A stretch of 58,512 nucleotides of DNA from Xanthobacteraceae bacterium (GCA_030037065.1 JASHRW010000099.1:1-58512); one strand, 5' to 3'; positions 11,689 to 39,510 are shown, counted from the first letter of the stretch. The notes: generated by a model from the sequence alone, not told the origin. Translations and numbers: made by a program.

Positions 11689-12666
11689 ATGAAGGTATTG
11701 GGCAAACTCGCAGTTGCCGCTCTGTTGGCAATCGCCTCTACCCTTGGTGTGCGGGCGCAGGCCTATCCGTCGCGGCCGATTTCGATCGTCGTGCCGTATC
11801 CGGCGGGAGGCGTTACCGACACGCTTGTTCGCCTGCTCGCCGAGCGAATGAAAAATTCACTCGGCCAGCCGGTCCTGACCGAGAATATGGGTGGCGCCTC
11901 GGGGACAGTCGGCGCGGCGCACGTCGCTCGAGCGGCGCCCGATGGCTATACGCTGTTGCTCGGCAATTCCGAGGCGTTCGTGCTGACGCCCGCCACGATG
12001 AAGCTGCCTTACAATCCGTCGACCGACTTCGCGCCGATCGCGCTATTGCCGAGCTATCCGTTCATCCTGGTGAGCACCAACGACGTGCCGGCGAAGACGC
12101 TTAAGGAGCTGATCGCCTGGATGCAGACAAATCCGGACAAAGTTCTGCAGGGGACCGTTGGCTCGGGCACCATGCAACAGCTCTGCGGTCTCTCGATCCA
12201 GCATACGGTTGGAGCCAAGTGGCAGCTTATTCCCTATCGCGGCGGAACGCCGGCGATGCAGGACATGCTCGCCGGACAGATCAATTTCATGTGCACCGCG
12301 AGCGGCAGCTTCCTGCCGCTGGTGCGCAGCGGGCAGATTCGCGTTTACGCGGTCACCGCAAAGAACCGCATGGAAGCAGCGCCGGGGATTCCGACCGTGG
12401 ACGAAGCCGGACTGCCCGGCCTCTACGTGTCGATATGGAACGCGCTGTGGGTGCCGGCAGGCACGCCGAAGGACATCATCGCCAAGCTCAATGCCGCCGC
12501 CAACGCGGCCATGGCCGATCCGACCTTCCACAAACGGATCGTGGACATGGGACTGGATATGCCGGCGAGCGACCAGCGCACTCCGGACGCGCTCGACGAC
12601 TTGCGCAAAGCCGATATCGCCAAATGGTGGCCGATCATCAAGGCTGCGGGACTGAAGGCGGAGTAA
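11689..12666 (+). CDS. Bug-family (TctC-like) substrate-binding protein
   Basis: A signal peptide is followed by YPSRPISIVVPYPAGGVTDTLVRL. This is the second orphan Bug gene in the window. Confidence 0.85.
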   Translation: MKVLGKLAVAALLAIASTLGVRAQAYPSRPISIVVPYPAGGVTDTLVRLLAERMKNSLGQPVLTENMGGASGTVGAAHVARAAPDGYTLLLGNSEAFVLTPATMKLPYNPSTDFAPIALLPSYPFILVSTNDVPAKTLKELIAWMQTNPDKVLQGTVGSGTMQQLCGLSIQHTVGAKWQLIPYRGGTPAMQDMLAGQINFMCTASGSFLPLVRSGQIRVYAVTAKNRMEAAPGIPTVDEAGLPGLYVSIWNALWVPAGTPKDIIAKLNAAANAAMADPTFHKRIVDMGLDMPASDQRTPDALDDLRKADIAKWWPIIKAAGLKAE

Positions 12667-12857
12667 TCAAGAAAAGACGCGCGCATCTCTGTTCGTATTG
12701 CCCGCGTCGGCCCGCCTTGCGGAGTACGGCTGGAGACTCTATTCACGATGGCGGGAACGCGTGGCGATCGCCGACCGGTTCGGTCTGCCGCCGCGCGCAC
12801 GATCGGGGAAAATCGGAAGCCGGTTTTTTGCCGGTTCATGCGCGCTTGAAAGAAATA

Positions 12858-13988
12858 ATGGAGAGCCAAATGGCCAAGAACGCGGTCGTTTCCGAGGACC
12901 TTGCCAGCAAGTTCAAGACCGAAAAGGAAACCCCATACACGCGTTGGGTCAAATCCGAAGGGCTCGACATCCTGCCATCCATTTACGTGCGTAATCTTCG
13001 GACCGTCGAACTGAAGCCCTGGGCGCGCCGCGGCGGCAACGCCGTGTTTCTTAACCACGATGCCTCGCGCACGTCGAACGATTGCCACGTCATGGAAATC
13101 CCGCCGGGAAAGAGTCTGAGCCCGCACCGGCAGCTCTACGAGGAGATGATTCTCGTGCTTTCCGGCCGCGGCTCGACCACGGTGTGTAACGACGCCGGCG
13201 CCCGGATCAGCTTCGAGTGGAATGAAGGCGCGCTGTTCGCCATTCCGCTCAATTGCCATCACCAGCATTTCAACGGCTCGGGCCGCGAGCCGGTGCGCTA
13301 TGTCGCGGTGACCAACGCGCCGCCGGTGATCAATCTGTACGAGGACGTCGATTTCGTCTTCAACACCAAATACGACTTCAAGGACCGCTTTTCCGGCGAG
13401 CCGGATTATTTCAGCTCAAAGGGCGAGCAAAAGGGCTTTCTGCTGACTACCAATTTCGTCCCCGATGCGGTCAACATTCCGCTGGTGACCGCGGCGGAGC
13501 GCGGCGCCGGCGGCGGCCACATTCGCTTCAACCTAGCCAAAGGCTCGATGAACAGCCATATCTCGCAATTCCCGATCGGCACCTACAAGAAGGCGCACGC
13601 GCACGGTCCCGGTGCCCACGTCATCGTACTCTCGGGCGAAGGCTTTTCGCTGATGTGGCCGGAAGGCGAGGAGCCGCAGCGCTTCGAATGGGAGGTCGGT
13701 ACCCTGATCGTGCCGCCCAACATGTGGTTTCACCAGCACTTCAATTCCGGCGCGACGCCGGCGCGCTATCTCGCTTTCAAGCACGAGGGCGTCGCCATCC
13801 GTAATGCGCAAGGTGTTCCCAAGGCCTGGATCAGCCGTCGCGTCGGCGGCGATCAGCTCGATTATATCGACGAAAAGCCGGAGATTCGCCGGCTGTTCGC
13901 GACCGAGCTTGCCAGGCGTGGCGTCGCGCCGCGCATGGATGCGGCCTACGCCAAGGAAATGGAGCAACTTGGGCTTAAGACGGCATAG
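12858..13988 (+). CDS. Bicupin (two-cupin-domain) protein, possible ring-cleaving or isomerising metalloenzyme
   Basis: I chose the internal ATG of ORF 12219..13988 (MESQMAKN..). The upstream part of that ORF overlaps the Bug gene. The duplicated cupin motif-2 reads PLNCHHQHFN and PPNMWFHQHFN. The C-terminal cupin motif-1 reads GTYKKAHAHGPGAH. Confidence 0.7.
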   Translation: MESQMAKNAVVSEDLASKFKTEKETPYTRWVKSEGLDILPSIYVRNLRTVELKPWARRGGNAVFLNHDASRTSNDCHVMEIPPGKSLSPHRQLYEEMILVLSGRGSTTVCNDAGARISFEWNEGALFAIPLNCHHQHFNGSGREPVRYVAVTNAPPVINLYEDVDFVFNTKYDFKDRFSGEPDYFSSKGEQKGFLLTTNFVPDAVNIPLVTAAERGAGGGHIRFNLAKGSMNSHISQFPIGTYKKAHAHGPGAHVIVLSGEGFSLMWPEGEEPQRFEWEVGTLIVPPNMWFHQHFNSGATPARYLAFKHEGVAIRNAQGVPKAWISRRVGGDQLDYIDEKPEIRRLFATELARRGVAPRMDAAYAKEMEQLGLKTA

Positions 13989-14006
13989 CGCGCCGTTGTA
14001 CATCGG

Positions 14007-14048
14007 CCGGACGCCATTTAGTTTGTGCCTTCGCTAAGTTGCGTCCGG
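14007..14048 (+). promoter_or_regulatory. Intercistronic hairpin ending 4 nt before the coxM-like start codon
   Basis: The arms are CCGGACGCCATTTAG (14007-14021) and CTAAGTTGCGTCCGG (14034-14048). They match at 13 of 15 positions. Confidence 0.45.
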
Positions 14049-14052
14049 GACA

Positions 14053-14922
14053 ATGAAACCAGCGACTTTCGACTATCACGCACCGCGACAGCTCAAGGAA
14101 GCCATCGAGCTCCTGGCGAAGCTGCCCAATGCCAAAATCTTGGCCGGCGGGCAATCGCTCGTGCCGATGATGAATTTTCGTTACGTGATCGTCGATCACC
14201 TGATCGATCTCGGCGGCCTCGATGAACTGCGCGGCATCACGCTCGGCAATGGACTCCTGCGCATCGGGGCCATGACCCGCCAGCGCGATCTCGAAGTGTC
14301 CCCCGAAATCGCCAAACATTGCCCGTTAATGTCGGAGGCTTTACGCCACGTCGGTCATCGACAGACCCGCAACCGCGGCACGATCGGAGGCAGTTTGGCG
14401 CACGCCGATCCGGCCGCGGAACTGCCGGCCGTGTGCGCGGCCTACGATGCGACCGTCCACGCCGTGAGCGTGCGCGGCATCCGCCAGATTCCATTCCGCG
14501 AATTTGCCGCGGGCTTCATGGCAACCGCGCTAAAGTCCGATGAAATGATCGCGGCGGTCGATGTGCCGATCTGGCGGCTCGGCCATGGTCATGGATTCCA
14601 TGAATTCGCCCGCCGCCAGGGCGACTTCGCCATCACCGGCGCTGCCGCGCTGCTCGATGTCGGCGTCGATAATGTGGTGCGGCGGGCGACGCTGACGCTG
14701 TTCGGTGTGACCGCTTCGCCGCTACGGGTCGAGGCGGCGGAATCGCGGCTCGTCGGGCAACCGCTCGATGCCGGCGCCATCCGCGCCGCGGCGGCGGCGG
14801 CATGGCTGATCGAGCCGATTTCGGATATCCATGCCGGCGGCGAGTACCGGCGTCACCTCGCGCAAGTTCTAAGTTCCCGCGCGCTCAATGACGCGGCGCG
14901 CCGGGCCGGCGTGACGGCCTGA
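14053..14922 (+). CDS. FAD-binding medium subunit of a xanthine dehydrogenase/CoxM-family molybdenum hydroxylase
   Basis: The start reads MKPATFDYHAPRQLKEAIELL..AKILAGGQSLVPMMNFR, and NRGTIGGSLAHADPAAELP is present. The protein is 289 aa, with no extra Fe-S insertion. Confidence 0.85.
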   Translation: MKPATFDYHAPRQLKEAIELLAKLPNAKILAGGQSLVPMMNFRYVIVDHLIDLGGLDELRGITLGNGLLRIGAMTRQRDLEVSPEIAKHCPLMSEALRHVGHRQTRNRGTIGGSLAHADPAAELPAVCAAYDATVHAVSVRGIRQIPFREFAAGFMATALKSDEMIAAVDVPIWRLGHGHGFHEFARRQGDFAITGAAALLDVGVDNVVRRATLTLFGVTASPLRVEAAESRLVGQPLDAGAIRAAAAAAWLIEPISDIHAGGEYRRHLAQVLSSRALNDAARRAGVTA

Positions 14923-14930
14923 GAGTCCAC

Positions 14931-15428
14931 ATGAGCAAACAGGGCACGCTCATAACGGTGAACGGCAAATCGTACGGCCGCGTCGTCGATGCGCGGCTTA
15001 CTCTTGCCGATTTCCTGCGCCATGAAATCAATCTCACCGGCACGCATCTCGGTTGCGAGCATGGCGTATGCGGCGCCTGCACGGTACTTGTCGATGGCCG
15101 CTCCGTCCGCTCATGCCTGATGTTCGCAGTGCAGGCCAACGGCTGCGAAGTGACCACGGTCGAGGGCCTTGCGCCCGACGGCAAGCTCTCGGTCCTGCAG
15201 CAGGCCTTTATCGACAATCACGGCCTGCAATGCGGATTTTGTACGCCGGGAATGTTGATCACGCTGACCGAATTGTTGCGCGAAAAACCGCAACCGAGCG
15301 AGCAGGACGTGCGCGAGGCGATTACCGGCAATCTGTGCCGGTGCACCGGCTACGCCGGCATCGTCAAGGCCGCGCTCGATGCGGCGCAGCGCCTGCGCAA
15401 CGGCGCCGGGAAAGCAGGGGCTCGTTGA
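14931..15428 (+). CDS. (2Fe-2S)-binding small subunit (CoxS-like)
   Basis: The two cluster motifs are CEHGVCGACTV and CGFCTPGMLI...CRCTGY. It starts 8 nt after the medium subunit. Confidence 0.9.
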   Translation: MSKQGTLITVNGKSYGRVVDARLTLADFLRHEINLTGTHLGCEHGVCGACTVLVDGRSVRSCLMFAVQANGCEVTTVEGLAPDGKLSVLQQAFIDNHGLQCGFCTPGMLITLTELLREKPQPSEQDVREAITGNLCRCTGYAGIVKAALDAAQRLRNGAGKAGAR

Positions 15429-17779
15429 TGGGCGTGAAACATTTCGGCGCCCGCGTCACGCGGCTCGAAGATCCGGCCTTGCTGGCCGGCCGCGGCCGTT
15501 TTGTCGACGACGTGAAGCTGCACGGCGTGTTGCACGCCTGTTTTGTACGTTCGCCTCACGCCCACGCCAAGCTTCGCGGCTGCGATTCGCGCGCAGCCTT
15601 GGTCATCCCCGGTGTTCATGCGGTGCTGACGGCGGAAGATTTGCCAGAATTGATGCGCGACCAGCCGTTGCCGCTCTTATTGCCAAATCCATCGCTTACG
15701 GCGGCTCGCACCCAACACGCGCTCGCACGTGACGAAGTGACTTATGTGGGGCAAGCGGTCGCAGTGGTGATCGCCGATACGCGTTACATTGCCGAAGATG
15801 CGGCGGCGGCATTGATCGTCCAATACGACGTGCTGCAGGCGACGTCCGACTGCCGCGCCGCCGCCGAGCATGGCGCCCCGCGCGCGCACAGCGATCTTGA
15901 TTCGAACGTCGCCTCCACGTTTCGCCTGGCCTACGGCGATACCGATTCCGCTTTTGCCGACGCCACGCACGTCTTCACCGAGGCTTTCTGGCAACACCGC
16001 GGCGGCGGTATGGCGATCGAGACGCGCGCGGTGCTTGCTCACCACGATCCGGTTTCCGATCTGCTGACCGTCTGGTCGGGAACGCAAACGCCGCATATTG
16101 GCCGGCGCGTGCTTGCCGATCTGCTCGGCCGCGATCTGCAATCGATTCGCATGATCGCCCCCGATGTCGGCGGCGGCTTTGGGCCGAAGGCGATTTTCTA
16201 TCCGGAGGAGGCGGTGATCCCGGCGGCGGCGCTGAAGCTCGGCCGGCCGGTGAAATGGATCGAGGATCGGCGCGAACATTTCCTCTGTGCGACGCAGGAG
16301 CGCGACCAACACTGGGAAGTCGCGATCGCCGTCGATGCGGAGGGAAAAATCCTCGGTCTGCGCGGCCGCATGCTGCACGATACCGGCGCCTTCGTGCCGT
16401 GGGGCATCGTCATGCCCTATATCGCGGCCTCGACCGTGCCGGGCCCCTACGTCGTTCCGGCCTATCAGTTCGATACCGTTGTTGTACTGACCAATAAGGT
16501 GCCGACGACGCCGGTGCGCGGCGCCGGCCGGCCGCAAGCGGTGTTCGCGATGGAACGGCTGATGGATCGCGTCGCCCGCGAATTGAATATCGATCGCGCC
16601 GAGGTGCGCCGCCGCAATTTCATCCAGCCCGATCAGATGCCTTACAAGGTCGGGCTGACATTCCGCGATGGCAAGCCGCTCATCTACGACAGCGGGGATT
16701 ACCCGGGCGTGCAGGAAAAGGCGCTGGGCCTTGCCGAATACGAAGATTTCCGCGAGCGGCAGAAAGCCGCGATCGAGCAGGGCCGTTTCATCGGCATCGG
16801 CCTCGCCAACTACGTCGAAGGCACGGGCTTGGGTCCATTCGAGGGCGTCACAGTGCGCATGCTGCCGAGCGGCAAGGTAGCGGTCGCGACCGGCGCCACC
16901 AACCAGGGCCAGGGCACGCGCACGACGTTGTCGCAGATCATTGCCGAACAGGTCGGCTGCCGCCTCGAAGACATTGTCATGACGCTCGGCGACACGGCCG
17001 CGATTTCCCAAGGGGTTGGATCTTTCGCCAGCCGCCAAGCGGTCAATGCCGGCTCATCCGCGCTCATTGCCGGTCAGTCGGTGCGCAAGCAGCTCATCGC
17101 GCTCGCCGCGCGTACGCTTGGCGTCAACGAAATCGACATTGAACTTGAAGACGGCATGGCAATGTCGCGGCGCGGAAACAAACCATCGGTCTCGTTCGGC
17201 GATCTGGCGCGGCTCGCGCAGGGAATTCCCGGCGTTTCGCTGCCGGCCGGCCAGGCGGCGGGGATCGAGCACACTGCCTATTACACGCCCTCGCAAGCGG
17301 CCTATTGCTCCGGCACGCACGTGGCCGAAGTGCAGGTCGACGCGATGACCGGCGGCGTCAAGGTACTGCGCTACACTGTCGCTCACGATGCCGGCCGCGT
17401 GATCAATCCGCTCATCGTCGACGGCCAGGTGCAGGGCGGCGTGGCGCACGGCATCGGCAATGCGCTGCTCGAATGGATGCGATACGACGCCAACGCGCAG
17501 CCGCTCACCACCTCGTTCGCCGATTACATGCTGCCGATGGCGACCGACGTGCCGACCTGCGCCATTGCCCATGTCGAGACCGTCAATCCGCTCAATCCAC
17601 TCGGCGTCAAGGGCGCCGGCGAGGGGGGAACCATCCCGGCACCGGCCGCGATCGTGGCGGCGATCGAAGATGCGCTCTCGCCGTTCGGCGTGCATTTTGC
17701 CGAAACGCCGCTCACTCCCGAACGCATCGTCGCCGCGATGCGCGCCGCCGGCGCTTACGAGAGATTATTTCCAGCATGA
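15428..17779 (+). CDS. Molybdopterin-binding large subunit (CoxL-like, not a form I CO dehydrogenase)
   Basis: I chose the internal ATG (MGVKHFGARVTRLEDPALLAGRGRFVDD); it overlaps the small-subunit stop by 1 nt. The active-site loop region reads PVRGAGRPQ rather than VAYRCSFR. Confidence 0.85.
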   Translation: MGVKHFGARVTRLEDPALLAGRGRFVDDVKLHGVLHACFVRSPHAHAKLRGCDSRAALVIPGVHAVLTAEDLPELMRDQPLPLLLPNPSLTAARTQHALARDEVTYVGQAVAVVIADTRYIAEDAAAALIVQYDVLQATSDCRAAAEHGAPRAHSDLDSNVASTFRLAYGDTDSAFADATHVFTEAFWQHRGGGMAIETRAVLAHHDPVSDLLTVWSGTQTPHIGRRVLADLLGRDLQSIRMIAPDVGGGFGPKAIFYPEEAVIPAAALKLGRPVKWIEDRREHFLCATQERDQHWEVAIAVDAEGKILGLRGRMLHDTGAFVPWGIVMPYIAASTVPGPYVVPAYQFDTVVVLTNKVPTTPVRGAGRPQAVFAMERLMDRVARELNIDRAEVRRRNFIQPDQMPYKVGLTFRDGKPLIYDSGDYPGVQEKALGLAEYEDFRERQKAAIEQGRFIGIGLANYVEGTGLGPFEGVTVRMLPSGKVAVATGATNQGQGTRTTLSQIIAEQVGCRLEDIVMTLGDTAAISQGVGSFASRQAVNAGSSALIAGQSVRKQLIALAARTLGVNEIDIELEDGMAMSRRGNKPSVSFGDLARLAQGIPGVSLPAGQAAGIEHTAYYTPSQAAYCSGTHVAEVQVDAMTGGVKVLRYTVAHDAGRVINPLIVDGQVQGGVAHGIGNALLEWMRYDANAQPLTTSFADYMLPMATDVPTCAIAHVETVNPLNPLGVKGAGEGGTIPAPAAIVAAIEDALSPFGVHFAETPLTPERIVAAMRAAGAYERLFPA

Positions 17780-18333
17780 ACGACACGCAGGCACAGACCG
17801 AGACCACGCCGTTCTGGCGCTTCTCGCTGCAATTTTACCGGCTTTCCGGCGTGTCCGACGCCTGCATCGCGCTACAGGACGATTGCGGCGTCGACGTCAA
17901 TCTTTTGCTGTTTCTGTTCTGGTTGGCGTCGGAGGGTCGAGCGCTCGCCGTCGAAGAGGTCAAAAAACTCGACAACAACGTGTGCACCTGGCGCGAACTG
18001 ACGATCGTTCCGATCCGCGACACCCGGCGCAAGCTCAAGGGCGCCCGTACCCTGGTCGACGCAGGAAGGCAGGAGGCTTTTCGCAATAAGGTGAAGGCCG
18101 TCGAGCTTGAGGCCGAGCGATTGCAGCAGGAGGCGCTGTACGCATTGACCCAGTCGGGGCCGCCGGGCAAGCCGGCCGACCCAAGCGCGGCGGCGCGCGA
18201 CAACGTTGCGGCTTACGAACGCGCCCTAGGCGCGACCTTCGCGAAGGGCGCGGCCGGTCTTCTTTTCCGCGCGTTCGATTCAATTCCACATCGTGGCCGC
18301 GCTGCGGCTGCTGCTGTTGCAGGGCAAGGGTAG
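17776..18333 (+). CDS. DUF2390 / TIGR02444-like protein of unknown function
   Basis: The ATG overlaps the large-subunit stop (ATGA). FWRFSLQFYRLSGVSDACIALQDDCGVDVNLLLFLFWLA matches my recollection of the DUF2390 N-terminal signature. It is about 185 aa. Confidence 0.6.
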   Translation: MNDTQAQTETTPFWRFSLQFYRLSGVSDACIALQDDCGVDVNLLLFLFWLASEGRALAVEEVKKLDNNVCTWRELTIVPIRDTRRKLKGARTLVDAGRQEAFRNKVKAVELEAERLQQEALYALTQSGPPGKPADPSAAARDNVAAYERALGATFAKGAAGLLFRAFDSIPHRGRAAAAAVAGQG

Positions 18334-18341
18334 GGACGCTC

Positions 18342-18950: not shown

Positions 18951-18954
18951 CAGG
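18927..18954 (+). repeat. Heptanucleotide tandem repeat (CGACAGA x3 plus a degenerate unit) spanning the ubiX stop codon
   Basis: The sequence is cgacaga cgacaga cgacaga tgacagg. It encodes the non-conserved UbiX tail ..DDGRQTTDDR*. Confidence 0.7.
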
Positions 18955-19005
18955 GTAAAATCTAGGGCAGTGGCCTTGCCGCTCTATAATCATCCGTCGT
19001 CTGTC
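18935..19005. repeat. Imperfect inverted repeat flanking a 39-bp AT-richer core between ubiX and the next gene
   Basis: The arms are GACAGACGACAGATGA (18935-18950) and TCATCCGTCGTCTGTC (18990-19005), matching at 15 of 16 positions. Further GC-rich matching lies outside the arms. The core contains TATAAT (18985-18990). Confidence 0.6.
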
Positions 19006-19429: not shown

Positions 19430-19435
19430 TCGGGC

Positions 19436-32091: not shown

Positions 32092-32222
32092 GTTACCCTC
32101 CCGAATTCGCGTGTCCTGCGGGTGTCCTATCAGGCAACCCGTGCCGGCCATGTCTGGCGCAGCCAATCGAGCGTTTCGGCCGCTTTTTTACCCTCGGAGA
32201 ATGGGCGGGGCCATGCGGCAGG

Positions 32223-33164
32223 TCAACCCATGCGGCCGGGGTGACCGCCCTGAGTGTCGCGCTCCAATGCGCCGCGATCCCATTTGGCCAGGTCGGCCGC
32301 CGCCTCATAGGTCTCCTGTAGGAAGCCAAGCAGCAGGTTATCGGGATCACGCGCTTCCCGCACGGCGTCGTATGGCAGGATGAACTGCCCGACATCCTTG
32401 TTGTACGCGGCTTCGGACATGCTCAGACGTGCGGCGCCATACTGGTCCGGCTCGGGATACGCATAGACGTAATAGGCGGCGCTGCCGAAGCCGCCATTGC
32501 CCGGCCAGAAACCGCAACTCGAACATTCATGCGAATAGGCCTCCGCCATCACCCAGTCGGCAACGTAAGGCGTATGCCCCTTCGGCGGTGGCGCGGTGCG
32601 GCCGGAGAACCGCGTCACCGCCAGATCGAAACTGCCCCAGAAAAAATGCACCGGGCTGACTTTGCCGATGAACCGGCTGCGAAATTTAGTCATCACCCGC
32701 GCCGATTGAACCAGCGCTTGGTGGAAGCGCGTAACGTATTCGCGGTCGTATTGCGCGTGCGAGCGGTCCTCTTCGAACGCGACGCAGTTCTCGATCTCGC
32801 ACGGCGTGGTCGAGACGTGCGTTTCTATACCGAGGCGCTGCATGCGCTGCATGAACGCCGCATAGAAATCGGCGACAGTCATCGGCTTGAGCGGCAGACT
32901 CTCGCGCCGGCCGTCGCTGGTCGAGATGACAAGCCGATGATCGAGGAAATCGAACGCGATGTCGAACGCGCGGCCGCGATAGGGGATCGTCCGCTTGGCC
33001 ATGCCGCGGGCGGTGACGTGAAACGTCACGTTCCACCAATGATTGACGAGCGGCGTCAGGGCGAGGACGACCTTGCCGGCAATCTGCGTCCACAATTGCA
33101 GCGTCTCGCAGGTTTCGCTCCATGCGGTGTAAGGCAGCTCAGGCCATTGCGGGTTTGAGGTCAT
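32223..33164 (-). CDS. DUF5996 family protein (function unknown)
   Basis: WPELPYTAWSETCETLQLWTQIAGKV, SPVHFFWGSFDLAVTRFSGR and CGFWPG match my recollection of DUF5996. It starts 34 nt downstream of UbiD paralog 2 on the same strand. Confidence 0.65.
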   Translation of the reverse strand: MTSNPQWPELPYTAWSETCETLQLWTQIAGKVVLALTPLVNHWWNVTFHVTARGMAKRTIPYRGRAFDIAFDFLDHRLVISTSDGRRESLPLKPMTVADFYAAFMQRMQRLGIETHVSTTPCEIENCVAFEEDRSHAQYDREYVTRFHQALVQSARVMTKFRSRFIGKVSPVHFFWGSFDLAVTRFSGRTAPPPKGHTPYVADWVMAEAYSHECSSCGFWPGNGGFGSAAYYVYAYPEPDQYGAARLSMSEAAYNKDVGQFILPYDAVREARDPDNLLLGFLQETYEAAADLAKWDRGALERDTQGGHPGRMG

Positions 33165-33198
33165 GTATCGGCCCTCGCGCTCCCTCTCTCGGTGTCCA

Positions 33199-34728
33199 CT
33201 ACGATTTCATCAAATACCCAAATCTCTGCAGCGCTTCGCGCCGCTCGTCTGCGCTCGGCATGTTCACGGCGGGGAACTTGTCGCGCCAATGGTAAGGGCG
33301 GCAAGCATCGATCACGGCGCGGCTGTTGGTGTAGTCGCCGATCGCCTTGCGCTCCGGCTCAATGCGCGGATCGAGTGGCGTCGACCAGGCATCACGGATG
33401 ATGTCGATCGATGTGGCCGGATCGGAGCGCGTGATCAGCGCCCAGATCACCTCGTCGAGGTTCGACACGTCGATGTCGTCGTCGACCACGATGACGTAGC
33501 GCCCGCAATAGGCGCCGACGTGACACTGCGCGGCGATATGGCCGGCCTGCTTGGCATGACCGGGATAGCGCTGCTTGACCGCAACGGCGAGGAACAGCCG
33601 CGCGTTGCCGACCTCGTGCGCCCAGGCCGCTGTGACGCCGGGCACGCCGGCCTTCTCGATGTTCGCTCGCAGCAGCGCGGAACGCACGATGGCGCGGTAG
33701 CGGCAGATTTCATCGGGGGGCCGTTGCGGCACGCAGCCGAGCAGGATCGGCTCGTTGCGATAGTAGACCGCCTTGACGTCGATGACGGGCTCGGGCCGTT
33801 CGTCGGATGCGTAATAGCCGGTCCATTCGCCGAACGGTCCCTCCTCGCGCACGTTGCCGGGCTCGACAAAGCCCTCAATGACGATTTCGGCGTTAGCGGG
33901 TATCGGCAGCCCGGTGACCGGGCCCTTGATCACCTCGACCGGCTGACCGCGCATGCCGCCGATAATGTCGAGTTCGCACACGCCCTGCGGCACCTCGCTC
34001 GATCCCATCAGAAAGCTCATCGGGTCGCCGCCGCAGACAATCACGACCGGCATGCGCTCGCCGCGTGCCGCGTATTTGTCACGCATCACCCGTCCGTGTT
34101 TGCCGGGCGAGATATAGAAGCCGAGTGTCTTTCCGTCATGGATCATGACGCGGTAGGTGCCGCAATTGATCCAGCCGTCATCGGGATCGCGCATGATGTT
34201 GTAGCAGCCGGTGCCGATGTAACGGCCGCCGTCCTGCGGGTGCCATTGCGGCGCCGGAAATTTGGTCACGTCGATTGAGTCGACCGCCATGACGTTCTGC
34301 ATCACCGGGCCAGTCTCGACGTATTTCGGCGGGATGCGCTTGAGCATGGCGGCGTGATTGACGCGGAAACTTTCGCTCAGCTCCAGCTTCGAGAGTTCGG
34401 TAGAAAATCCGAGCGTCATGGCTTTGCGCTTGCCGGCGAAGAAGTTGACCAGCAAGCGGCTGCCCGGCAGCGTGTCCGGGATGTCGGTGAATACGAAGCA
34501 CGGTGCATCGTCGGCATGCGCCGACATTTCGACGACCATGCCGATGTCGCGCTGATACGACAGCCCGCCGACCTCGCGCACCTCGCCGAGCTTTTTGGCC
34601 TCTTCGAGCCATTGACGCAGATCGCGATACGGCAGAACTGGCGCGGTGTTCGAACCGGCAAGGCCTTGGATGCTGCTGCCGCCCAGCGGAGTCGCCATCG
34701 GATCGGGCATGAAATTCTGCTCGGCCAT
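33199..34728 (-). CDS. UbiD-family decarboxylase, paralog 2 (most canonical)
   Basis: It is 509 aa. The catalytic region reads REEGPFGEWTGYYAS. CGTYRVMIHD is also present. Confidence 0.85.
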   Translation of the reverse strand: MAEQNFMPDPMATPLGGSSIQGLAGSNTAPVLPYRDLRQWLEEAKKLGEVREVGGLSYQRDIGMVVEMSAHADDAPCFVFTDIPDTLPGSRLLVNFFAGKRKAMTLGFSTELSKLELSESFRVNHAAMLKRIPPKYVETGPVMQNVMAVDSIDVTKFPAPQWHPQDGGRYIGTGCYNIMRDPDDGWINCGTYRVMIHDGKTLGFYISPGKHGRVMRDKYAARGERMPVVIVCGGDPMSFLMGSSEVPQGVCELDIIGGMRGQPVEVIKGPVTGLPIPANAEIVIEGFVEPGNVREEGPFGEWTGYYASDERPEPVIDVKAVYYRNEPILLGCVPQRPPDEICRYRAIVRSALLRANIEKAGVPGVTAAWAHEVGNARLFLAVAVKQRYPGHAKQAGHIAAQCHVGAYCGRYVIVVDDDIDVSNLDEVIWALITRSDPATSIDIIRDAWSTPLDPRIEPERKAIGDYTNSRAVIDACRPYHWRDKFPAVNMPSADERREALQRFGYLMKS

Positions 34729-34739
34729 GCATCACCTTG

Positions 34740-34756
34740 TTTTGCCTTTGGGCAAA
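34740..34756. promoter_or_regulatory. Palindrome in the 68-bp divergent UbiD-2 / CoA-ligase control region
   Basis: The sequence is TTTTGCC-TTT-GGCAAAA. It is followed by an AT-rich stretch (gcttatattgct). Confidence 0.45.
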
Positions 34757-34796
34757 ATGCTTATATTGCTAAGGAATTGTCGTAGGCGATCCTATC

Positions 34797-36332
34797 ATGC
34801 AGGCGGAAGCCGGCTCAAACCTGTTGCAGAATTGGATCGCGCGGGCGGCCGCGCGCGCGCCGGCAAAGCCGTGGGTCGTCTCCGTCGACGATGGGCGCAT
34901 CGTCACCTACGGCGAATTGCGCGAAGCTGCCGGCTGTTTCGCCGCATTCCTGCGCGGGCGCGGCATCGGCCGCAACGACCGTGTCGCGCTGCTCGCCAAC
35001 AACGCGATCGAGCAACTGCTTTGCTTTCTTGGCGTGATGGCCGCGGGCGCCACGATCTGCACCATTCACGTCGAGATGAACCGCAACCAGCTCGGCAACA
35101 TTTTCGGACGGCTCAAGCCGCGCCTCATTCTCTATCAGGACGGCCTCGGGCTCGACGGTCTGCTCGCCAGCGCCAATGCGCCGCGCCTGCGCATCGGAAG
35201 GTGGGGCAAAGCGGAATCCGACACGCTATTCGCCGAGATTGCAAAATATGCGCCGACCGCGCCTGAGATGACGGCGCAGCCTGACGACGATGCGGTCATC
35301 CTGTTCACGTCCGGCACCAGCGCCAAACCCAAGGGCGTGATTCTGAGTTTCCGCGAATACCTTTTGAACATCGATCCGCTGTCCGAAGGCTTCGGCATCA
35401 CTGCGGACGACCGGGTGTACGATTTCCGTCCATTCAGCTGGAATTCGGCGCAGACTTTGGGCGGGCTTGCCGTCGTCAACCGCGGCGCAACGCTTGTACT
35501 TGCAGAAAAATTCTCAGCGCGCCGATTTTTCGCGCATCTGCGCGAGCACGGCGTGACGGTCGCCACCGGCAATCCGACGACGATCAATATTCTGCTCAAC
35601 AGCGAGCAAACCGCGCACCGCGACGATTTGCCGAAACTACGCTTCGTCACCTCGAGCTCGGCGCCGCTGCTGCTCGAGGAGTGGAAGCGCTTCGAGCAGA
35701 AATTCGGCATTCCGGTCGCGCAAGGCTGCGGCGCCAGCGAGGTGAGCTGGATCGCCGCCATTCCCGGCGAACGGCGCCGCCTCGGCAAGGTCGGACGGCC
35801 GTTCGCCTATCACGATCTCGCCATCGTCGATGCGGAAGGCCGGCGCCTGCCTGCCGGTGAAATCGGCTACGTCGAGCTTGGCGGGCTTGGCGACCATCCT
35901 TACCGTTATCTCGGCGAGGACGCCGAGGTGAAAATCCATTGCCGCGGCCGCTTCCGCACCGGCGATCTGGGTAGCCTCGACGCCGACGGATTTTTGACGC
36001 TCACCGGCCGCGAGAAGGAACTGATCATCCGCGGCGGTGCGAAAATCTCGCCGGTCGAGATCGACTCATTCTTGATGCAACACGCCGACGTGATCGAGGC
36101 CGCCACCGTGGGCGTTCCAGACAAAATTTATGGCGAAGAGGTGGTGAGCTACGTGGTGACACGGCCGGGCGCGGCAGCGGATGCCGACGCGCTCTTGCGC
36201 TACTGCGCGTCTCTGCCGGCCTTCAAGGCGCCGAAGCGAATCCTGCTCGCCGACGCGTTGCCGAAGACCGAACGCGGCAAGCTGGACCGCAAGGCGCTGG
36301 CCGAGAGGTGGAAGGAGGACACCCGCCACTAG
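34797..36332 (+). CDS. Class I adenylate-forming enzyme (acyl/aryl-CoA ligase)
   Basis: The AMP-binding motifs are FTSGTSAKPKGV, RFRTGDLG and GREKELIIRGGAKISP. It is 511 aa. Confidence 0.85.
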   Translation: MQAEAGSNLLQNWIARAAARAPAKPWVVSVDDGRIVTYGELREAAGCFAAFLRGRGIGRNDRVALLANNAIEQLLCFLGVMAAGATICTIHVEMNRNQLGNIFGRLKPRLILYQDGLGLDGLLASANAPRLRIGRWGKAESDTLFAEIAKYAPTAPEMTAQPDDDAVILFTSGTSAKPKGVILSFREYLLNIDPLSEGFGITADDRVYDFRPFSWNSAQTLGGLAVVNRGATLVLAEKFSARRFFAHLREHGVTVATGNPTTINILLNSEQTAHRDDLPKLRFVTSSSAPLLLEEWKRFEQKFGIPVAQGCGASEVSWIAAIPGERRRLGKVGRPFAYHDLAIVDAEGRRLPAGEIGYVELGGLGDHPYRYLGEDAEVKIHCRGRFRTGDLGSLDADGFLTLTGREKELIIRGGAKISPVEIDSFLMQHADVIEAATVGVPDKIYGEEVVSYVVTRPGAAADADALLRYCASLPAFKAPKRILLADALPKTERGKLDRKALAERWKEDTRH

Positions 36333-36333
36333 C

Positions 36334-36465
36334 GCGTCATTCCGGGGTGCGAGCAACGCGAGCGAACCCGGAATCCATAACTACGAAGCTCGAAGTCCAG
36401 CACGAATTTATCCAGACTCGTGATTATGGATTCCGGCTCTCGCTTTCGCTCGGCCGGAATGACGC
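36334..36465. repeat. REP-like nested palindromic element (about 130 bp)
   Basis: The outer termini are GCGTCATTCCGG...CCGGAATGACGC. The left hairpin is TTCCGGG..CCCGGAA. The central inverted repeat is GGAATCCATAA..TTATGGATTCC. The right hairpin is TTCCGGC..GCCGGAA. It fills the whole convergent gap between the ligase and UbiD-3. Confidence 0.85.
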
Positions 36466-36466
36466 A

Positions 36467-38065
36467 CTACCGTCCGCTCTTCGCCAGCGAGTGCACCCAG
36501 CCGGCCATGCGCTTCTTGGCGTTGGCGATGTCCTCTTTGGAGAACCAATCTTCCGGCTTGACCTTGTCGACCGGATAGACCGGGCGGAGGAAATCGCTCT
36601 CGTAGCCGAACGGCACCGTGGCATCGATGCCCATGCCGCCTTCGAAGCGCGTGTTCGACGCCGTCCATTGCTGCGCGCCCGCGGTCATACGTTCAGCCGG
36701 CATAAAGGTCTGGCCGCGGCCGCCCGGGATCGGATTGAGGATATCGGTCTGCGGATTGACCCGCGTGGTCAGGCACCACATGACGTCGTCCATCGAGTAG
36801 GGATCGACGTCCTCGCTGACCGCGATGGCAAGCCGCATGCCCTGCGAGCACGACAGGATGGCGGAGAGGAAATTGCGCTGCCAGCCTTCGTCGATCTGGT
36901 GGCGCTTCTTCACCTGGATGACGCAACCGCCCCAATCGGTCATGCAGTACGGGATCACGACGTTCTGCACGATGCCGGGCTGCAGCCGGTTGCACAGCTC
37001 GTAGATTGCCGCCTCGCGCACACTGGTGTCGATGTTATGATCGTCCAGCATATGGACGCCGAGCGCAAAGATGATCGGCTTCGACTCCGGCTTGCGCATG
37101 GTGATGGCGGTGACGTGGAAGGTCGGCGCTTTGTAGGACTTGCCCATGTAGCCGGCCCATTCGGGATGGAAATGGTAGCGGCCCTGCACGCCGGCATCCT
37201 CGGCTTCCTTGGTCTCGAAGCGACGGTCGCGCGGGTTGACGTAGCCTTCGAGCACGAGTTCGCAGTCGGCGAGCGCCATGGCGTCGACCGTGCGCGCCTT
37301 GACCAGACGAATGGGCGCACCCTGCACCGCCGACGCGATGCCGATTTCGTCGCAGCCCATCGGCAGCACGGCGTAATCGAAGCCGGCGCCGGCAAGCAGC
37401 GTGCAGGCCGGCGGCACGCCGAAGCACATCGTGATCGGCACCGGCTCGTTCTCCTTGTAGTATTTGTTGACTACCTGCCACATGTGCGAGCCGGGCGAGA
37501 TCTGAAACGTGCCGACATTGCCCCAGCGGAAATTCATCCGGTTGTAGCCGAGGTCGGAACCGCCCTCGAATTGCGCGCCGGTGACGCAGCGGATGCCGGA
37601 GCCGACGGTCAACTCGGGTTCGTAAGTGGTGTGGCGGATCGGCACCAGCCATTTGTTGACGTCGGCGGGCTTTTCGATGACGAATTCCTGGCACGGCGCC
37701 TCGCTCTGTGCGATCTCGGCAGGTTTGATGGGATGGGACAGCGCGTGCGCCAGCTTCTTCACGCGCTCGGCGTCATCCTTCCAGCCGAACATCTTGTTGA
37801 TGATCGCCATGTCGCCGAACAAATTGGTGATGACGCGATGGTTGGGCTTGCCTTTGACGGTGTTGAACAGAACCGGGCAGCCGCCGTCCATGTGCTTCTG
37901 CAGGCCGGTGACCTGCAGATCGGGATCGACCTCTTTGTCGGTTTCGATCAGTTCGCCGTTGGCGCGCAGCCATTGCAATGTGCTGCGCAGGTCGAAAGCT
38001 TGGTTCGGCGTGGCGGTCGATGGCTGTTCCTTGCGCAGCGGCTGTTGCATTGGCGGCGTTCCCAT
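36467..38065 (-). CDS. UbiD-family decarboxylase, paralog 3 (divergent)
   Basis: It is about 532 aa from ATG 38065 (alternative start 38050). It has UbiD-like length and blocks, but the catalytic region reads RYHFHPEWAGYMGKS. It is divergent from the MarR gene. Confidence 0.75.
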   Translation of the reverse strand: MGTPPMQQPLRKEQPSTATPNQAFDLRSTLQWLRANGELIETDKEVDPDLQVTGLQKHMDGGCPVLFNTVKGKPNHRVITNLFGDMAIINKMFGWKDDAERVKKLAHALSHPIKPAEIAQSEAPCQEFVIEKPADVNKWLVPIRHTTYEPELTVGSGIRCVTGAQFEGGSDLGYNRMNFRWGNVGTFQISPGSHMWQVVNKYYKENEPVPITMCFGVPPACTLLAGAGFDYAVLPMGCDEIGIASAVQGAPIRLVKARTVDAMALADCELVLEGYVNPRDRRFETKEAEDAGVQGRYHFHPEWAGYMGKSYKAPTFHVTAITMRKPESKPIIFALGVHMLDDHNIDTSVREAAIYELCNRLQPGIVQNVVIPYCMTDWGGCVIQVKKRHQIDEGWQRNFLSAILSCSQGMRLAIAVSEDVDPYSMDDVMWCLTTRVNPQTDILNPIPGGRGQTFMPAERMTAGAQQWTASNTRFEGGMGIDATVPFGYESDFLRPVYPVDKVKPEDWFSKEDIANAKKRMAGWVHSLAKSGR

Positions 38066-38091
38066 TGCATAGATTTCTAAGTAATTCCTGC

Positions 38092-38595
38092 ATGGGAAAC
38101 CGTGGACTGTCAACGCCGATGCCGCCGCCGTCAGCGAAAGCAAAGTCCGTGCGCGTGCTGGAGTTCCCGCCGCGGCTGTCCTCCGGCTATCTGGTGCGCG
38201 ATGCGCATCGCGCCTTTCAGCGTCTCCTGGAGCGGCGCATAACGCCTTATGGAGTCACCCGGGGCCAATGGTATTTTCTGCGCGTTTTGTGGACCCATGA
38301 CGGTCTGTCGCAGCGCGAACTGTCGGCGCGCGTCGGCATGATGGAGCCGACCACGGTGATTGCTCTGCGCAGCATGGAGAGGTCCGGATTGATCCACCGC
38401 CTACGCAGCGACGACGACCGGCGCAAGGTGCGCGTGCTGCTCACCGCCAAGGCCAAACGGCTACGCAATGAGTTGCTCGCCGTGGCGCGAACCATCACTG
38501 AAGAGGCGGAAGCGGGTATCGACATGCGCGACCTCGCTTCTTTCCGCCGCGTCATCGCGCGTATGACGGCCAATCTCGACCTTATCGAACGCTAG
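38092..38595 (+). CDS. MarR family transcriptional regulator
   Basis: I chose the internal ATG (MGNRGLS..). The winged-helix region reads GVTRGQWYFLRVLWTHDGLSQRELSARVGMMEPTTVIALRSMERSGLIHR. Confidence 0.85.
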   Translation: MGNRGLSTPMPPPSAKAKSVRVLEFPPRLSSGYLVRDAHRAFQRLLERRITPYGVTRGQWYFLRVLWTHDGLSQRELSARVGMMEPTTVIALRSMERSGLIHRLRSDDDRRKVRVLLTAKAKRLRNELLAVARTITEEAEAGIDMRDLASFRRVIARMTANLDLIER

Positions 38596-38639
38596 GACTC
38601 AGAGTCACTGAACGACGATACGCGCAGGATCATCGATTC

Positions 38640-38658
38640 CCTCTCCCTGCGGGAGAGG
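38640..38658. repeat. Short GC hairpin (REP-like unit)
   Basis: The sequence is CCTCTCCC-tgc-GGGAGAGG. It is flanked by the CTAGGAC (38592-38598) / GTCCTAG (38683-38689) inverted pair. Confidence 0.5.
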
Positions 38659-38712
38659 TGAAGCACGAAACAACGATCGTGGGTCCTAGGCAACAGAACC
38701 AAGGAGGCGAGC

Positions 38713-39510
38713 GTGACAAATCCGAGTTCGGCGAACCCGGTGTTGCTGGAGATCGATGATCGCAAGGTCGCGCGCCTCGTGCTCAATCGCCCTGAGGTCA
38801 ACAATGCCTACGATGGCGATCTCATCCAAGCGATGCTGACGGCGTTCGAGGCGCTGGAGAAAGCGTCGGGAATCCGCGCGGTTGTCATCAGCGGCAACGG
38901 ACGGCATTTTCAAGCCGGCGCCGACCTCAAGTGGCTCGATACGCTGCGGGCGGCTTCGGCGGAGGAAAACATTCGCGCCTCGCGAGCGACCGCCGAGGCG
39001 GTGCGACGCCTCAACTCGACACCGGTGCCGACGGTAGCATTGGTGCAGGGCGCATGCTTCGGCGGTGGCATCGGCATTGTCGCGGCGTGCGACATCGTCA
39101 TCGCCGCCGACGACGCGATATTTTCGATCGCCGAAGTGCGCTGGGGCCTGACGGCGGCCATCATCATCCCACAGCTCAACGACGCCATCGGCGTGCGGCA
39201 AGTGCGGCGTTATGCGCTGACCGGAGAGCGGTTCGATGCGCAGGAAGCCCGCCGCATCGGTCTCGTCCATGCGATCGTACCAGCGAGCGAACTCAAGGCG
39301 GCCGGCGCGCGCATGGTCGATCAATTGCTGCAAAACGGACCGGACGCAATTTCACAGACCAAGGCGCTCGCCCTCGAATCGTCGTGGAGCATGATCGACG
39401 AAGCGACATTCGAGCGTCTCGTCGAGATGCACGCGAAAAAACGGCAGTCCGGGGAGGCGGCCGAAGGGCTTTTGTCGTTCGTGGAGAAGCGCGCTGCAAA
39501 ATGGCGTTGA
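38713..39510 (+). CDS. Enoyl-CoA hydratase/isomerase (crotonase) family protein
   Basis: A GTG start follows AAGGAGG. The motifs are FQAGADLKW and GACFGGGIGIVAACDIVIAADDAIFSIAEVRWGL. Confidence 0.85.
   Translation: MTNPSSANPVLLEIDDRKVARLVLNRPEVNNAYDGDLIQAMLTAFEALEKASGIRAVVISGNGRHFQAGADLKWLDTLRAASAEENIRASRATAEAVRRLNSTPVPTVALVQGACFGGGIGIVAACDIVIAADDAIFSIAEVRWGLTAAIIIPQLNDAIGVRQVRRYALTGERFDAQEARRIGLVHAIVPASELKAAGARMVDQLLQNGPDAISQTKALALESSWSMIDEATFERLVEMHAKKRQSGEAAEGLLSFVEKRAAKWR

Follow-up and report, generated by a model that had tools for sequence, protein, structure and literature searches.

A soil Xanthobacteraceae locus with three UbiD-family genes and a single UbiX is probably a mosaic of separately regulated catabolic modules

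Anaerobic degradation of o-phthalate is encoded in Azoarcus sp. PA01, Thauera chlorobenzoica and Aromatoleum aromaticum EbN1 by a cluster containing a coenzyme A (CoA) transferase (phtSa/phtSb), a decarboxylase of the UbiD family (phtDa) and a UbiX (phtDb). The acid is activated with CoA and then decarboxylated with prenylated flavin mononucleotide (prFMN). To our knowledge, phthaloyl-CoA decarboxylation has so far been described solely in anaerobic or facultative Beta-, Gamma- and Deltaproteobacteria, usually in transposon-flanked clusters. Here we analyze a 58,512-nucleotide stretch of DNA from a Xanthobacteraceae bacterium (GCA_030037065.1 JASHRW010000099.1:1-58512; the window), in which positions 11689-39510 carry three UbiD-family genes (UbiD-1, UbiD-2 and UbiD-3) and one UbiX gene. 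A preliminary description of this DNA had taken the region for an accessory island that matched neither of two known templates and plausibly encoded an uncharacterized pathway or set of pathways.

The region is probably a mosaic in which two or more catabolic modules, each with its own regulation, lie side by side, and not one pathway that uses three UbiDs. Module P (about 29317-38595) would be built around UbiD-3, an ortholog of phthaloyl-CoA decarboxylase, and contains UbiD-2, a CoA ligase, a MarR-family regulator and an ATP-binding cassette (ABC) importer. Module U (about 11689-23971) would be an independent operon that includes UbiX and UbiD-1. That module U is independent of module P is likely: three loci (L082, L085 and L086; related loci and contigs are cited by number) and EbN1 have P without U, and L015-L020 and L089 have U without P within 10 kb.

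Gene calls were confirmed by Pfam and NCBIfam profile scans of the window (Table 1). The scans bore out the three UbiD genes with their single UbiX, and tblastn gave neither a further UbiX nor a fourth UbiD anywhere in the window. Every neighboring gene named in the preliminary description is present, and its assignment of the region to aromatic-acid catabolism was correct. It had not included the DUF2390/TIGR02444, CopD-like, orphan 2Fe-2S and DUF5996 genes or the molybdenum (Mo) subunit gene of IorB type.

We placed the three UbiDs by their scores against all solved structures and the NCBIfam models. All three match Pfam PF01977 and PF20696 and have the features of the superfamily (the domains, the prFMN/metal Asn and catalytic Arg of an N-x4-R motif, and the catalytic Glu), and the active-site motifs quoted earlier were located in the sequence. 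In UbiD-1, UbiD-2 and UbiD-3, respectively, the aligned Asn/Arg motif reads RNMGTYR, INCGTYR and LGYNRMNFR, and the catalytic-Glu region EGPFGE, EGPFGE and HPEW; the canonical NxGxYR and EGPFGE motifs are thus kept in UbiD-1 and UbiD-2. Pairwise identity is 23-27%. The three are old paralogs, as the preliminary description had held in stating that they are not recent duplicates.

UbiD-3 gave 910 bits against the phthaloyl-CoA decarboxylase (Pcd) of T. chlorobenzoica (8pmk/8oz5), with 73% identity over 508/509 aligned residues. The next best solved relative gave 152 bits. In place of EGPFGE, UbiD-3 has the active-site stretch HFHPEWAGYMGK, which it has in common with Pcd (RYHFHPEWAGYMGKSYKAPTFHVTAITMR compared with RFHFHPEWAGYMGKAYKAPTFHVTAITMR). 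It is 72% identical to both decarboxylase copies of EbN1 and forms a clade apart from the Thauera and Aromatoleum enzymes, which are 95% identical to each other. By sequence, UbiD-3 is a phthaloyl-CoA decarboxylase ortholog nested in a clade of known specificity, and it probably acts as a phthaloyl-CoA-type decarboxylase after the adjacent ligase. The best solved relatives of that ligase are oxalyl-CoA and malonyl-CoA synthetases (218-169 bits), which activate dicarboxylates; it is not of the PaaK type. The MarR gene, divergent from UbiD-3, has orthologs of 57-85% identity at the same position in related loci.

The UbiD-2/ligase and decarboxylase/MarR intergenic regions were compared with their counterparts in related loci. 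They share an operator-like motif of 18-23 bp, written as CTTAGMAWTMTAWGYAWT. This pattern matches exactly twice in the 58.5-kb window, in the two divergent promoter regions (sites A and B, Table 1); with as many as 3 mismatches allowed, chance alone would give about 0.17 matches there. The window count alone is circular because the pattern was derived from those sites, so related DNA is the independent test. In the first 89 related loci (1.59 Mb), all matches lay just 5' of a ligase ortholog or between decarboxylase and MarR orthologs. In 80 metagenome contigs they lay 5' of UbiD-2 near the ligase, or near decarboxylase/MarR genes. A scan of 2.56 Mb of related DNA, in which positions were not mapped again, gave just two motif classes with 63 distinct variants, the cores conserved and the flanks diverged. 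Site B also occurs in L058, L066, L082, L085 and many metagenome loci. The window scan found no copy near the UbiD-1 operon.

The motif, like the homologies and the synteny, is a direct observation. It makes it quite likely that the decarboxylase, the ligase and the UbiD-2 operon are co-regulated through a shared operator, and from its position the MarR protein is the favored, if less secure, candidate for the regulator. In the closest metagenome contigs with the window's layout (L090, L091, L093, L095 and L097), the site lies ~520 nt 5' of UbiD-2, compared with 27 nt in the window; the UbiD-2/ligase intergenic region is accordingly ~0.5 kb longer in those contigs.

UbiD-2 is, by sequence, a distant sister of known heteroaromatic-acid decarboxylases. 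Its best solved relatives are PhdA (7PDA; 342 bits, 38% identity), identified as phenazine-1-carboxylate decarboxylase (PMC10850782), and HudA (208 bits, 30%). The former is the PhdA/PhdB enzyme of Mycobacterium fortuitum and the latter HudA/PA0254, the pyrrole-2-carboxylate decarboxylase. The canonical motifs of UbiD-2 suggest a decarboxylase of free (hetero)aromatic acids. However, identity to these enzymes is low, and the context of UbiD-2 is a phthaloyl-CoA cluster and not phenazine or pyrrole metabolism.

We rejected UbiD-2 as an isophthaloyl-CoA decarboxylase, judging by VdcC grouping and ligase type and not by that enzyme's own sequence. Isophthaloyl-CoA decarboxylase groups with VdcC-type phenolic acid decarboxylases (PMC8269228); UbiD-2 scored 228 bits against NCBIfam VdcC (cut-off 650 bits) and 134 bits against a solved phenolic acid decarboxylase, compared with the 342 bits for PhdA. 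The isophthalate ligase is PaaK-like (PMC9516798), and the window's is not.

A metagenome scan with UbiD-2 gave 80 soil contigs with 73-93% identity, in two layouts. Type A, that of the window (UbiD-2 86-93%), has no UbiX within 9 kb; its order is decarboxylase, then the ligase (-) divergent from UbiD-2, DUF5996 and (binding protein, ATPase, permease), then the 2-hydroxyacid dehydrogenase, MetE-like and binding-protein genes. Type B (UbiD-2 73-78%) has the order [MarR(-)], decarboxylase, ligase(-) or two tandem family III CoA transferases, UbiD-2, UbiX, with UbiX directly 3' of UbiD-2 in 34/37 contigs. Of the 56 contigs that extend 2 kb or more upstream, 41 have a ligase ortholog (66-85%) beside UbiD-2. 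In at least 10 contigs a tandem pair of family III CoA transferase genes takes its place, as confirmed by Pfam for L168 and L124. Where at least 7 kb upstream was available, 22/25 contigs have a decarboxylase ortholog (at least 70% identity). UbiD-2 is thus the steady companion of the decarboxylase, whichever enzyme activates the acid. Type B with transferases is the canonical phtSaSb/phtDa/phtDb set plus UbiD-2. The exchange of ligase and transferase mirrors known phthalate activation, which uses a transferase in denitrifiers and a ligase in sulfate reducers (PMC13040137).

UbiD-2 has an ortholog in a model strain as well. The UbiD WP_011255029 (L170 16901-18415) on EbN1 plasmid 2 (L170, NC_006824.1) is 64% identical to UbiD-2. 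The gene order there is UbiX, decarboxylase, ABC binding protein, ATPase, permease, UbiD (WP_011255029), porin, drug/metabolite transporter (DMT), UbiX, decarboxylase (WP_011255033) and two CoA transferases. Compared with the window's ABC importer, identity is 45% for the ATPase and 30% for the permease. EbN1 is a characterized phthalate degrader and this is its phthalate locus, of which WP_011255029 is the third UbiD. We found no statement on its role in the accessible papers; these did not include the original EbN1/Thauera cluster papers, and we make no claim of absence.

The claim that the region matches neither the furoate nor the phthalate template therefore fails for module P, on the 73% identity of UbiD-3 to solved Pcd, on the adjoining ligase and MarR genes with their common operator-like motif, and, for UbiD-2, on the well-flanked soil contigs and the EbN1 ortholog. 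Module P is like the pht clusters in that UbiD-3 is 72-73% identical to the characterized decarboxylases, a UbiX is present and CoA activation would precede prFMN-dependent decarboxylation; moreover, related soil contigs carry the full set of decarboxylase, two CoA transferases and UbiX, and the EbN1 locus also has the UbiD-2 ortholog and a three-part ABC importer. It is unlike them in several respects. Activation in the window would be by an AMP-forming ligase and not by a succinyl-CoA transferase, and no tandem CoA transferase genes lie beside the decarboxylase gene. The regulator is of the MarR family, compared with IclR in EbN1. The UbiX is 17 kb away in another operon, with no dedicated copy beside the decarboxylase gene, and the regulon incorporates a second UbiD as well as DUF5996. 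In addition, an alphaproteobacterium of Xanthobacteraceae type from soil is the host, and the window lacks the flanking transposases of the published clusters (PMC8269228). Compared by description only, Desulfosarcina cetonica likewise activates the acid with a ligase rather than a transferase before the decarboxylase (PMC13040137, PMC9516798); the window's ligase is oxalyl-/malonyl-CoA-synthetase-like.

UbiD-2 can be exchanged for another enzyme. Opposite the ligase, in at least 7 Xanthobacteraceae loci, a VanA-type Rieske oxygenase (Rieske and VanA_C domains) followed by DUF5996 replaces it (L004 19340-20389; same place in L003, L006, L009, L012, L014 and L043), behind the same operator motif. 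This exchange fits a position for a funneling enzyme. DUF5996, for which no PDB relative was found, belongs throughout to the operon that diverges from the ligase gene, after either UbiD-2 or the oxygenase. The ABC permease and ATPase are of the taurine/nitrate/sulfonate type by NCBIfam. The 400-residue protein beside them, which has a faint NMT1-like match and a signal peptide, is probably the importer's binding protein; all three genes are kept after UbiD-2 in L091, L092, L098 and L119. In the literature we found nothing linking phthaloyl-CoA to Bradyrhizobium-type bacteria, and nothing on UbiD in Bradyrhizobium aromatic catabolism.

In module U, gene gaps are 0-92 nt from the flavin adenine dinucleotide (FAD) subunit of the Mo hydroxylase through the CopD-like gene, and the CMD gene ends 6 nt before the UbiD-1 start codon. 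By sequence UbiD-1 belongs to an orphan clade with no close characterized relative. Its best solved relative is HmfF (6h6x; 141 bits), it is 30% identical to PhdA, it has a roughly 70-residue C-terminal extension, and it reaches no NCBIfam equivalog. A housekeeping role in ubiquinone synthesis was rejected (PRK10922, 116 bits; cut-off 788 bits). There are hundreds of relatives with >80% identity, nearly all from metagenome-assembled soil Xanthobacteraceae. UbiD-3 alone is thus fully inside a clade of known specificity, UbiD-2 is partly so, through its phthalate-type clusters, and UbiD-1 is an orphan; two of the three UbiDs (UbiD-1 and UbiD-2) are without an assigned substrate.

We compared UbiD-1 neighborhoods across 80 genome loci. 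The recurrent order is bicupin, an optional FAD/FeS/Mo hydroxylase, DUF2390, UbiX, CMD, UbiD-1 and an optional CopD-like gene, with the thiamine diphosphate (ThDP) enzyme and the 2Fe-2S subunit on the opposite strand, followed by the two LivJ-type binding proteins and the MetE-like gene. The UbiD-1 unit is conserved in >40 Xanthobacteraceae genomes. Orthologs of the bicupin (82-94%) lie 5' of UbiD-1 in 43 loci, the CMD protein is 81-96% conserved in 62 loci, and the ThDP enzyme has 83-93% orthologs in 37 loci (best PDB match benzoylformate decarboxylase, 95 bits). The CopD-like gene is present in 12 loci and was called as a gene in L001, L089 and L173. TctC orthologs (76-86%) hold the same place in L015-L017, L020, L045 and L060. 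DUF2390 was found in 56 loci and, across the related loci, always lies directly 5' of UbiX; a role linked to prFMN is conceivable. Protein P0244 (445 residues) combines cupin and DUF2390 domains, either as a natural fusion or as a read-through call where the bicupin abuts DUF2390.

Counterparts occur farther afield. UbiD-1 homologs with 65-67% identity lie on Rhizobiaceae chromids of Sinorhizobium fredii NGR234 and other strains, one S. meliloti, and Neorhizobium petrolearium. The one such record inspected, that of Neorhizobium, has the set in rearranged form: the UbiD-1 homolog is accompanied by Mo hydroxylases, UbiX (53%), TIGR02444/DUF2390 (42%, again beside UbiX), a ThDP enzyme (37%) and TctC. 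In L068 a UbiD-1 homolog (72%) and a gene for a Mo subunit, itself 72% identical to that of the window, stand in divergent orientation, and Acidobacteriota loci with UbiD-1 homologs have an unrelated Mo hydroxylase 2 kb away. The nearest solved relatives of the window's Mo subunit are quinoline 2-oxidoreductase (465 bits), CoxL and 6-hydroxypseudooxynicotine dehydrogenase (455 bits).

A precedent for a Mo hydroxylase with an orphan-clade UbiD and UbiX acting on an N-heterocycle, the logic we propose for module U, is lumazine/pterin cluster I of Cupriavidus sp. LA-1, which has a Mo lumazine dehydrogenase, an isomerase, xanthine-8-carboxylate decarboxylase (XCDC) and UbiX (PMC12391406). XCDC was compared by description only. 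We rejected membership of module U in this cluster type; the amidohydrolase-type isomerase subunits, pterin deaminase and purine permeases are missing from the window. An N-heteroaromatic carboxylate as the substrate of module U is a tentative suggestion that we rate as rather unlikely in this exact form.

Other searches on module U gave little. No PDB sequence relative of the bicupin was found, and an AlphaFold2 model (shallow alignment; predicted local distance difference test score 64) matched just generic bicupins (oxalate decarboxylase, vicilins; TM about 0.45), so we dropped it as a guide to function. A promoter and terminator scan of 11300-29400 gave no more than chance, and Rfam found tRNA only, with no molybdenum cofactor or thiamine pyrophosphate riboswitch. 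The orphan 2Fe-2S subunit adjoins the ThDP gene, and a lone IorB-like Mo subunit without its own small subunit lies 12 kb away, across the UbiD-1 operon. In L033 and L089 the 2Fe-2S gene is followed directly by the IorB-like gene (plus cytochrome c in L089). Given the split subunits in the window, it looks as if the plus-strand UbiD-1 operon was inserted or rearranged within a minus-strand IorAB/ThDP unit.

The window's UbiX lies within the UbiD-1 operon and 17 kb from the gene for UbiD-3. Type B loci have a UbiX of their own where type A loci lack one; this complementary pattern supports sharing, and we put the chance that one UbiX serves all three decarboxylases at about even; a housekeeping UbiX elsewhere in the genome could do so instead.

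From these observations we infer all substrates of modules U and P, and propose the following scheme. In module P, the ABC importer would take up an aromatic di- or polycarboxylate, and the dicarboxylate-type ligase would form its CoA thioester, spending ATP. UbiD-3 with prFMN would then remove the free ortho-carboxyl to give benzoyl-CoA or a substituted benzoyl-CoA. MarR would repress both divergent promoter pairs via the shared operator until the acid or CoA ester appears, and UbiD-2, DUF5996 and the importer would be transcribed from the promoter divergent from that of the ligase. UbiD-2 would be a free-acid decarboxylase, probably funneling a substituted or more carboxylated aromatic acid into module P; a role feeding the phthaloyl-CoA route is plausible, although we hold it at somewhat less than even. 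In module U, the substrate would probably be an N-heteroaromatic or similarly electron-poor carboxylate. Uptake through TctC could be followed by Mo hydroxylation, prFMN-dependent decarboxylation by UbiD-1, ring opening by the bicupin, and processing by the CMD and ThDP enzymes. The UbiX of module U would likely supply prFMN to all three decarboxylases. The earlier suggestion of an uncharacterized pathway thus holds for module U, as a UbiD/Mo-hydroxylase cluster, and not for module P, which appears to be a variant of the phthaloyl-CoA route.

Several points weigh against this scheme. U and P are adjacent in many genomes (at least 12 loci, plus L173), which would also fit a functional link. The window has no downstream genes for benzoyl-CoA (box or bad/bcr). 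UbiD-3 could prefer a substituted phthaloyl-CoA, given its 73% identity and separate clade. We infer MarR binding to the motif from position only, and we know of no biochemical precedent for the proposed role of UbiD-2. How the steps of module U follow one another is guesswork: about half of the Xanthobacteraceae loci do without the Mo hydroxylase and have the bicupin right beside DUF2390, and the Neorhizobium version has neither bicupin nor CMD protein.

One alternative refines this scheme and does not exclude it: the substrates of the decarboxylase ortholog and the ligase might be substituted benzene dicarboxylates of natural origin, such as hydroxy-, methoxy- or carboxy-phthalates released in the breakdown of lignin or polycyclic aromatic hydrocarbons, and not man-made o-phthalate, with UbiD-2 or the VanA-type oxygenase, and the MetE-like protein, trimming substituents. 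Contigs from peat, forest and grassland soil carry the module very often, the decarboxylase forms a clade of its own (73% identity), and the Rieske oxygenase stands at UbiD-2's promoter in at least 7 loci. The MetE-like gene has orthologs of 80-90% in related loci of both modules, and the LivJ-type binding proteins travel with it, beside either module. An intradiol (catechol/hydroxyquinol-type) dioxygenase gene lies directly 3' of it in L082 (13835-14719) and L173 (18623-19525) and is missing from the window; this neighbor hints that the MetE-like protein makes a catecholic product, e.g., by O-demethylation. However, high specificity for o-phthalate has been reported for the characterized phthaloyl-CoA decarboxylase and CoA transferases (PMC13040137; bioRxiv 10.1101/2022.07.29.502009), and an esterase beside the decarboxylase gene in L085 would fit phthalate esters. 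We regard the natural-substrate reading as possible but on balance doubtful.

A bolder version makes UbiD-2 a new prFMN enzyme and an obligate partner of Pcd in Alpha- and Betaproteobacteria, converting benzene tricarboxylates or other substituted phthalates to phthalate and, with UbiD-1 and the shared UbiX, stripping polycarboxylates stepwise. We consider it improbable, and rate a benzene tricarboxylate as the UbiD-2 substrate no higher; a literature search found nothing on benzene tricarboxylate decarboxylases.

Slightly less probable again is one integrated pathway, in which the three UbiDs would sequentially decarboxylate one polycarboxylated aromatic, for example a benzene polycarboxylic acid of charcoal or humic origin. 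The rest of the breakdown would fall to the Mo hydroxylase, bicupin and ThDP enzymes, with one UbiX serving all. This reading gains from the UbiD-1 cluster adjoining ligase/decarboxylase genes in many genomes, from the single UbiX in the window and the lack of an own UbiX in window-type loci, and from the TctC "tricarboxylate" binding proteins that flank the region. What speaks against it is that the motif occurs at the ligase/UbiD-2 and decarboxylase/MarR promoters alone, with no copy at the UbiD-1 operon, that the two modules occur separately (module U also in Neorhizobium), and that a VanA-type oxygenase can hold the UbiD-2 position. UbiD-2 lies 12.1 kb from UbiD-1 and the flanks of the UbiD-1 loci were 10 kb, which partly explains the absence of UbiD-2 from the 80 UbiD-1 loci. 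The closest relative, L173 (UbiD-1 92% identical), keeps the window's gene order from the IorB-like gene as far as the ABC permease, with which it ends, and probably shares the UbiD-2 layout too. On a megaplasmid of another soil bacterium, Paraburkholderia caribensis MBA4 (L172; NZ_CP012748.1, 1528000-1563000), about 20 kb hold genes resembling UbiD-2 (44%) and UbiD-1 (54%), together with one UbiX (67%), a ligase-like gene, a Mo hydroxylase and ABC components. Neighborhoods with several UbiDs and a single UbiX thus recur beyond Alphaproteobacteria.

It is very unlikely that the region is a recently acquired genomic island inserted at the tRNA-His gene, although that gene (41877-41953) lies 84 nt past the last gene of the block and gene content is mosaic among relatives. 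The parts that vary are the Mo hydroxylase, the CopD-like gene, the intradiol dioxygenase, the ABC importer, UbiD-2 or the VanA-type oxygenase, and the crotonase. We found no integrase or transposase and no repeats in the window. G+C is 0.60-0.65 across the region without a step at the edges, and G+C at third codon positions matches the flanks. Between tRNA-His and MarR lie GNAT and metallophosphoesterase genes, and these adjoin the module in unrelated contigs too (L082, L098 and L100-L106). The synteny search in related genomes proposed with the preliminary description showed conservation across dozens of species-level genomes, the nearest relatives included. The accessory island is therefore not supported; the region looks like a flexible catabolic neighborhood of the lineage and not a recent insertion.

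An hmf-like pathway for furoate or 2,5-furandicarboxylate is hardly credible: the classes of Cupriavidus basilensis HmfABCDE and HmfF/HmfG (Mo furoyl-CoA dehydrogenase, furoyl-CoA ligase, crotonase-type hydrolase, UbiD/UbiX) do co-occur here and HmfF is the best solved match of UbiD-1, but that match is just 141 bits, the Mo subunit is nearest to hydroxylases of quinoline and nicotine pathways, the ligase lies 14 kb off in another transcription unit within the decarboxylase/MarR regulon, and the crotonase, also in another unit than UbiD-1, has no ortholog among the roughly 170 related loci (there the metallophosphoesterase gene adjoins MarR directly), which removes the last support for the analogy and leaves the resemblance coincidental.

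Table 1. Features of the region and its margins, with coordinates in the window
Feature	Coordinates	Strand	Evidence or remark
IorB-like Mo subunit	9213-11402	-	just beyond the 11689-39510 range
TctC (tripartite tricarboxylate transporter) binding protein	11689-12666	+	Pfam TctC 217 bits; first gene 5' of UbiD-1 operon
Bicupin, metal-binding type	12858-13988	+	Pfam Cupin_2/Cupin_1
Mo hydroxylase, three-subunit	14053-17779	+	Pfam and NCBIfam
Mo hydroxylase, FAD subunit	14053-14922	+	
Mo hydroxylase, 2Fe-2S subunit	14931-15428	+	
Mo hydroxylase, Mo subunit	15428-17779	+	
DUF2390/TIGR02444 protein	17776-18333	+	Pfam 109 bits, NCBIfam 106 bits
UbiX flavin prenyltransferase	18342-18950	+	NCBIfam NF004685 255 bits, above cut-off
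PcaC-like CMD-family protein	19043-19429	+	Pfam CMD; NCBIfam decarb_PcaC 136 bits (cut-off 156 bits)
UbiD-1	19436-21094	+	Pfam UbiD_N/UbiD/UbiD_C
CopD-like small membrane protein	21106-21561	+	Pfam CopD 34.5 bits; last gene of UbiD-1 operon
ThDP-dependent enzyme (PRK08327/benzoylformate decarboxylase-like)	21671-23446	-	Pfam TPP_enzyme_N/M/C; NCBIfam 226 bits, below cut-off
Orphan 2Fe-2S small subunit, IorAB-type Mo enzyme	23519-23971	-	Pfam Fer2_2/Fer2
LivJ-type periplasmic binding protein	24248-25564	+	Pfam Peripla_BP_6 189 bits
LivJ-type periplasmic binding protein	25689-26981	+	Pfam Peripla_BP_6 192 bits
MetE-C-terminal-like protein (Meth_synt_2/URO-D fold)	27028-28056	+	Pfam 127 bits
D-2-hydroxyacid dehydrogenase family protein	28203-29291	+	Pfam 2-Hacid_dh_C 164 bits
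ABC importer	29317-32166	-	Pfam BPD_transp_1, ABC_tran
ABC importer, permease	29317-30138	-	
ABC importer, ATPase	30135-30908	-	
Probable importer binding protein	30964-32166	-	likely start near 32091; 400 residues, signal peptide
DUF5996 protein	32223-33164	-	Pfam DUF5996 443 bits
UbiD-2, PhdA/HudA-like decarboxylase	33199-34728	-	
Operator-like site A (CTTAGCAATATAAGCATT)	34756-34773	-	within 68-bp UbiD-2/ligase intergenic region
AMP-forming CoA ligase, dicarboxylate type	34797-36332	+	Pfam AMP-binding
UbiD-3, phthaloyl-CoA decarboxylase ortholog	36467-38065	-	second Met at 38050 may be true start
Operator-like site B (CTTAGAAATCTATGCAAT)	38064-38081	-	between phthaloyl-CoA decarboxylase gene and MarR
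MarR-family regulator	about 38092-38595	+	Pfam MarR; divergent from UbiD-3
Crotonase-family protein	38713-39510	+	Pfam ECH_1 172 bits

Among the genes between the modules, the 2-hydroxyacid dehydrogenase has 74-91% orthologs in L002, L057, L090-L093, L097 and L109. Beyond the region, the tRNA-His gene (-) is followed by ~1.4 kb (about 41950-43400) without a coding-like open reading frame, and then by a long PAS/histidine-kinase-like frame running to about 46 kb. A malonyl-CoA decarboxylase gene (55252-56607, -) adjoins a family III CoA transferase gene (56720-57982, +). The latter is the window's sole CoA_transf_3 gene and belongs to the family that activates phthalate in denitrifiers. Since it lies 18 kb from the gene for UbiD-3 and lacks an operator motif, it is probably unrelated to module P.

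The window places a clear phthaloyl-CoA decarboxylase ortholog as a stable chromosomal gene in an abundant group of soil Xanthobacteraceae, with an ATP-dependent ligase and a recognizable operator. What is new about module P is the host group, the ligase form, the defined operator and the conserved extra UbiD. An oxygen-independent phthalate route would thereby have a wider ecological range, with a hint of natural substrates. UbiD-2 is a conserved and possibly overlooked component of such clusters, found even in the model strain EbN1. UbiD-1 and UbiD-2 represent abundant clades and are targets for UbiD enzymology; cultured, tractable hosts are S. fredii NGR234 and N. petrolearium for UbiD-1 homologs and EbN1 for UbiD-2. 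If stepwise stripping of benzene polycarboxylic acids from oxidized charcoal, humic matter and condensed lignin were true, it would give phthaloyl-CoA decarboxylase a natural, pre-plastic role.

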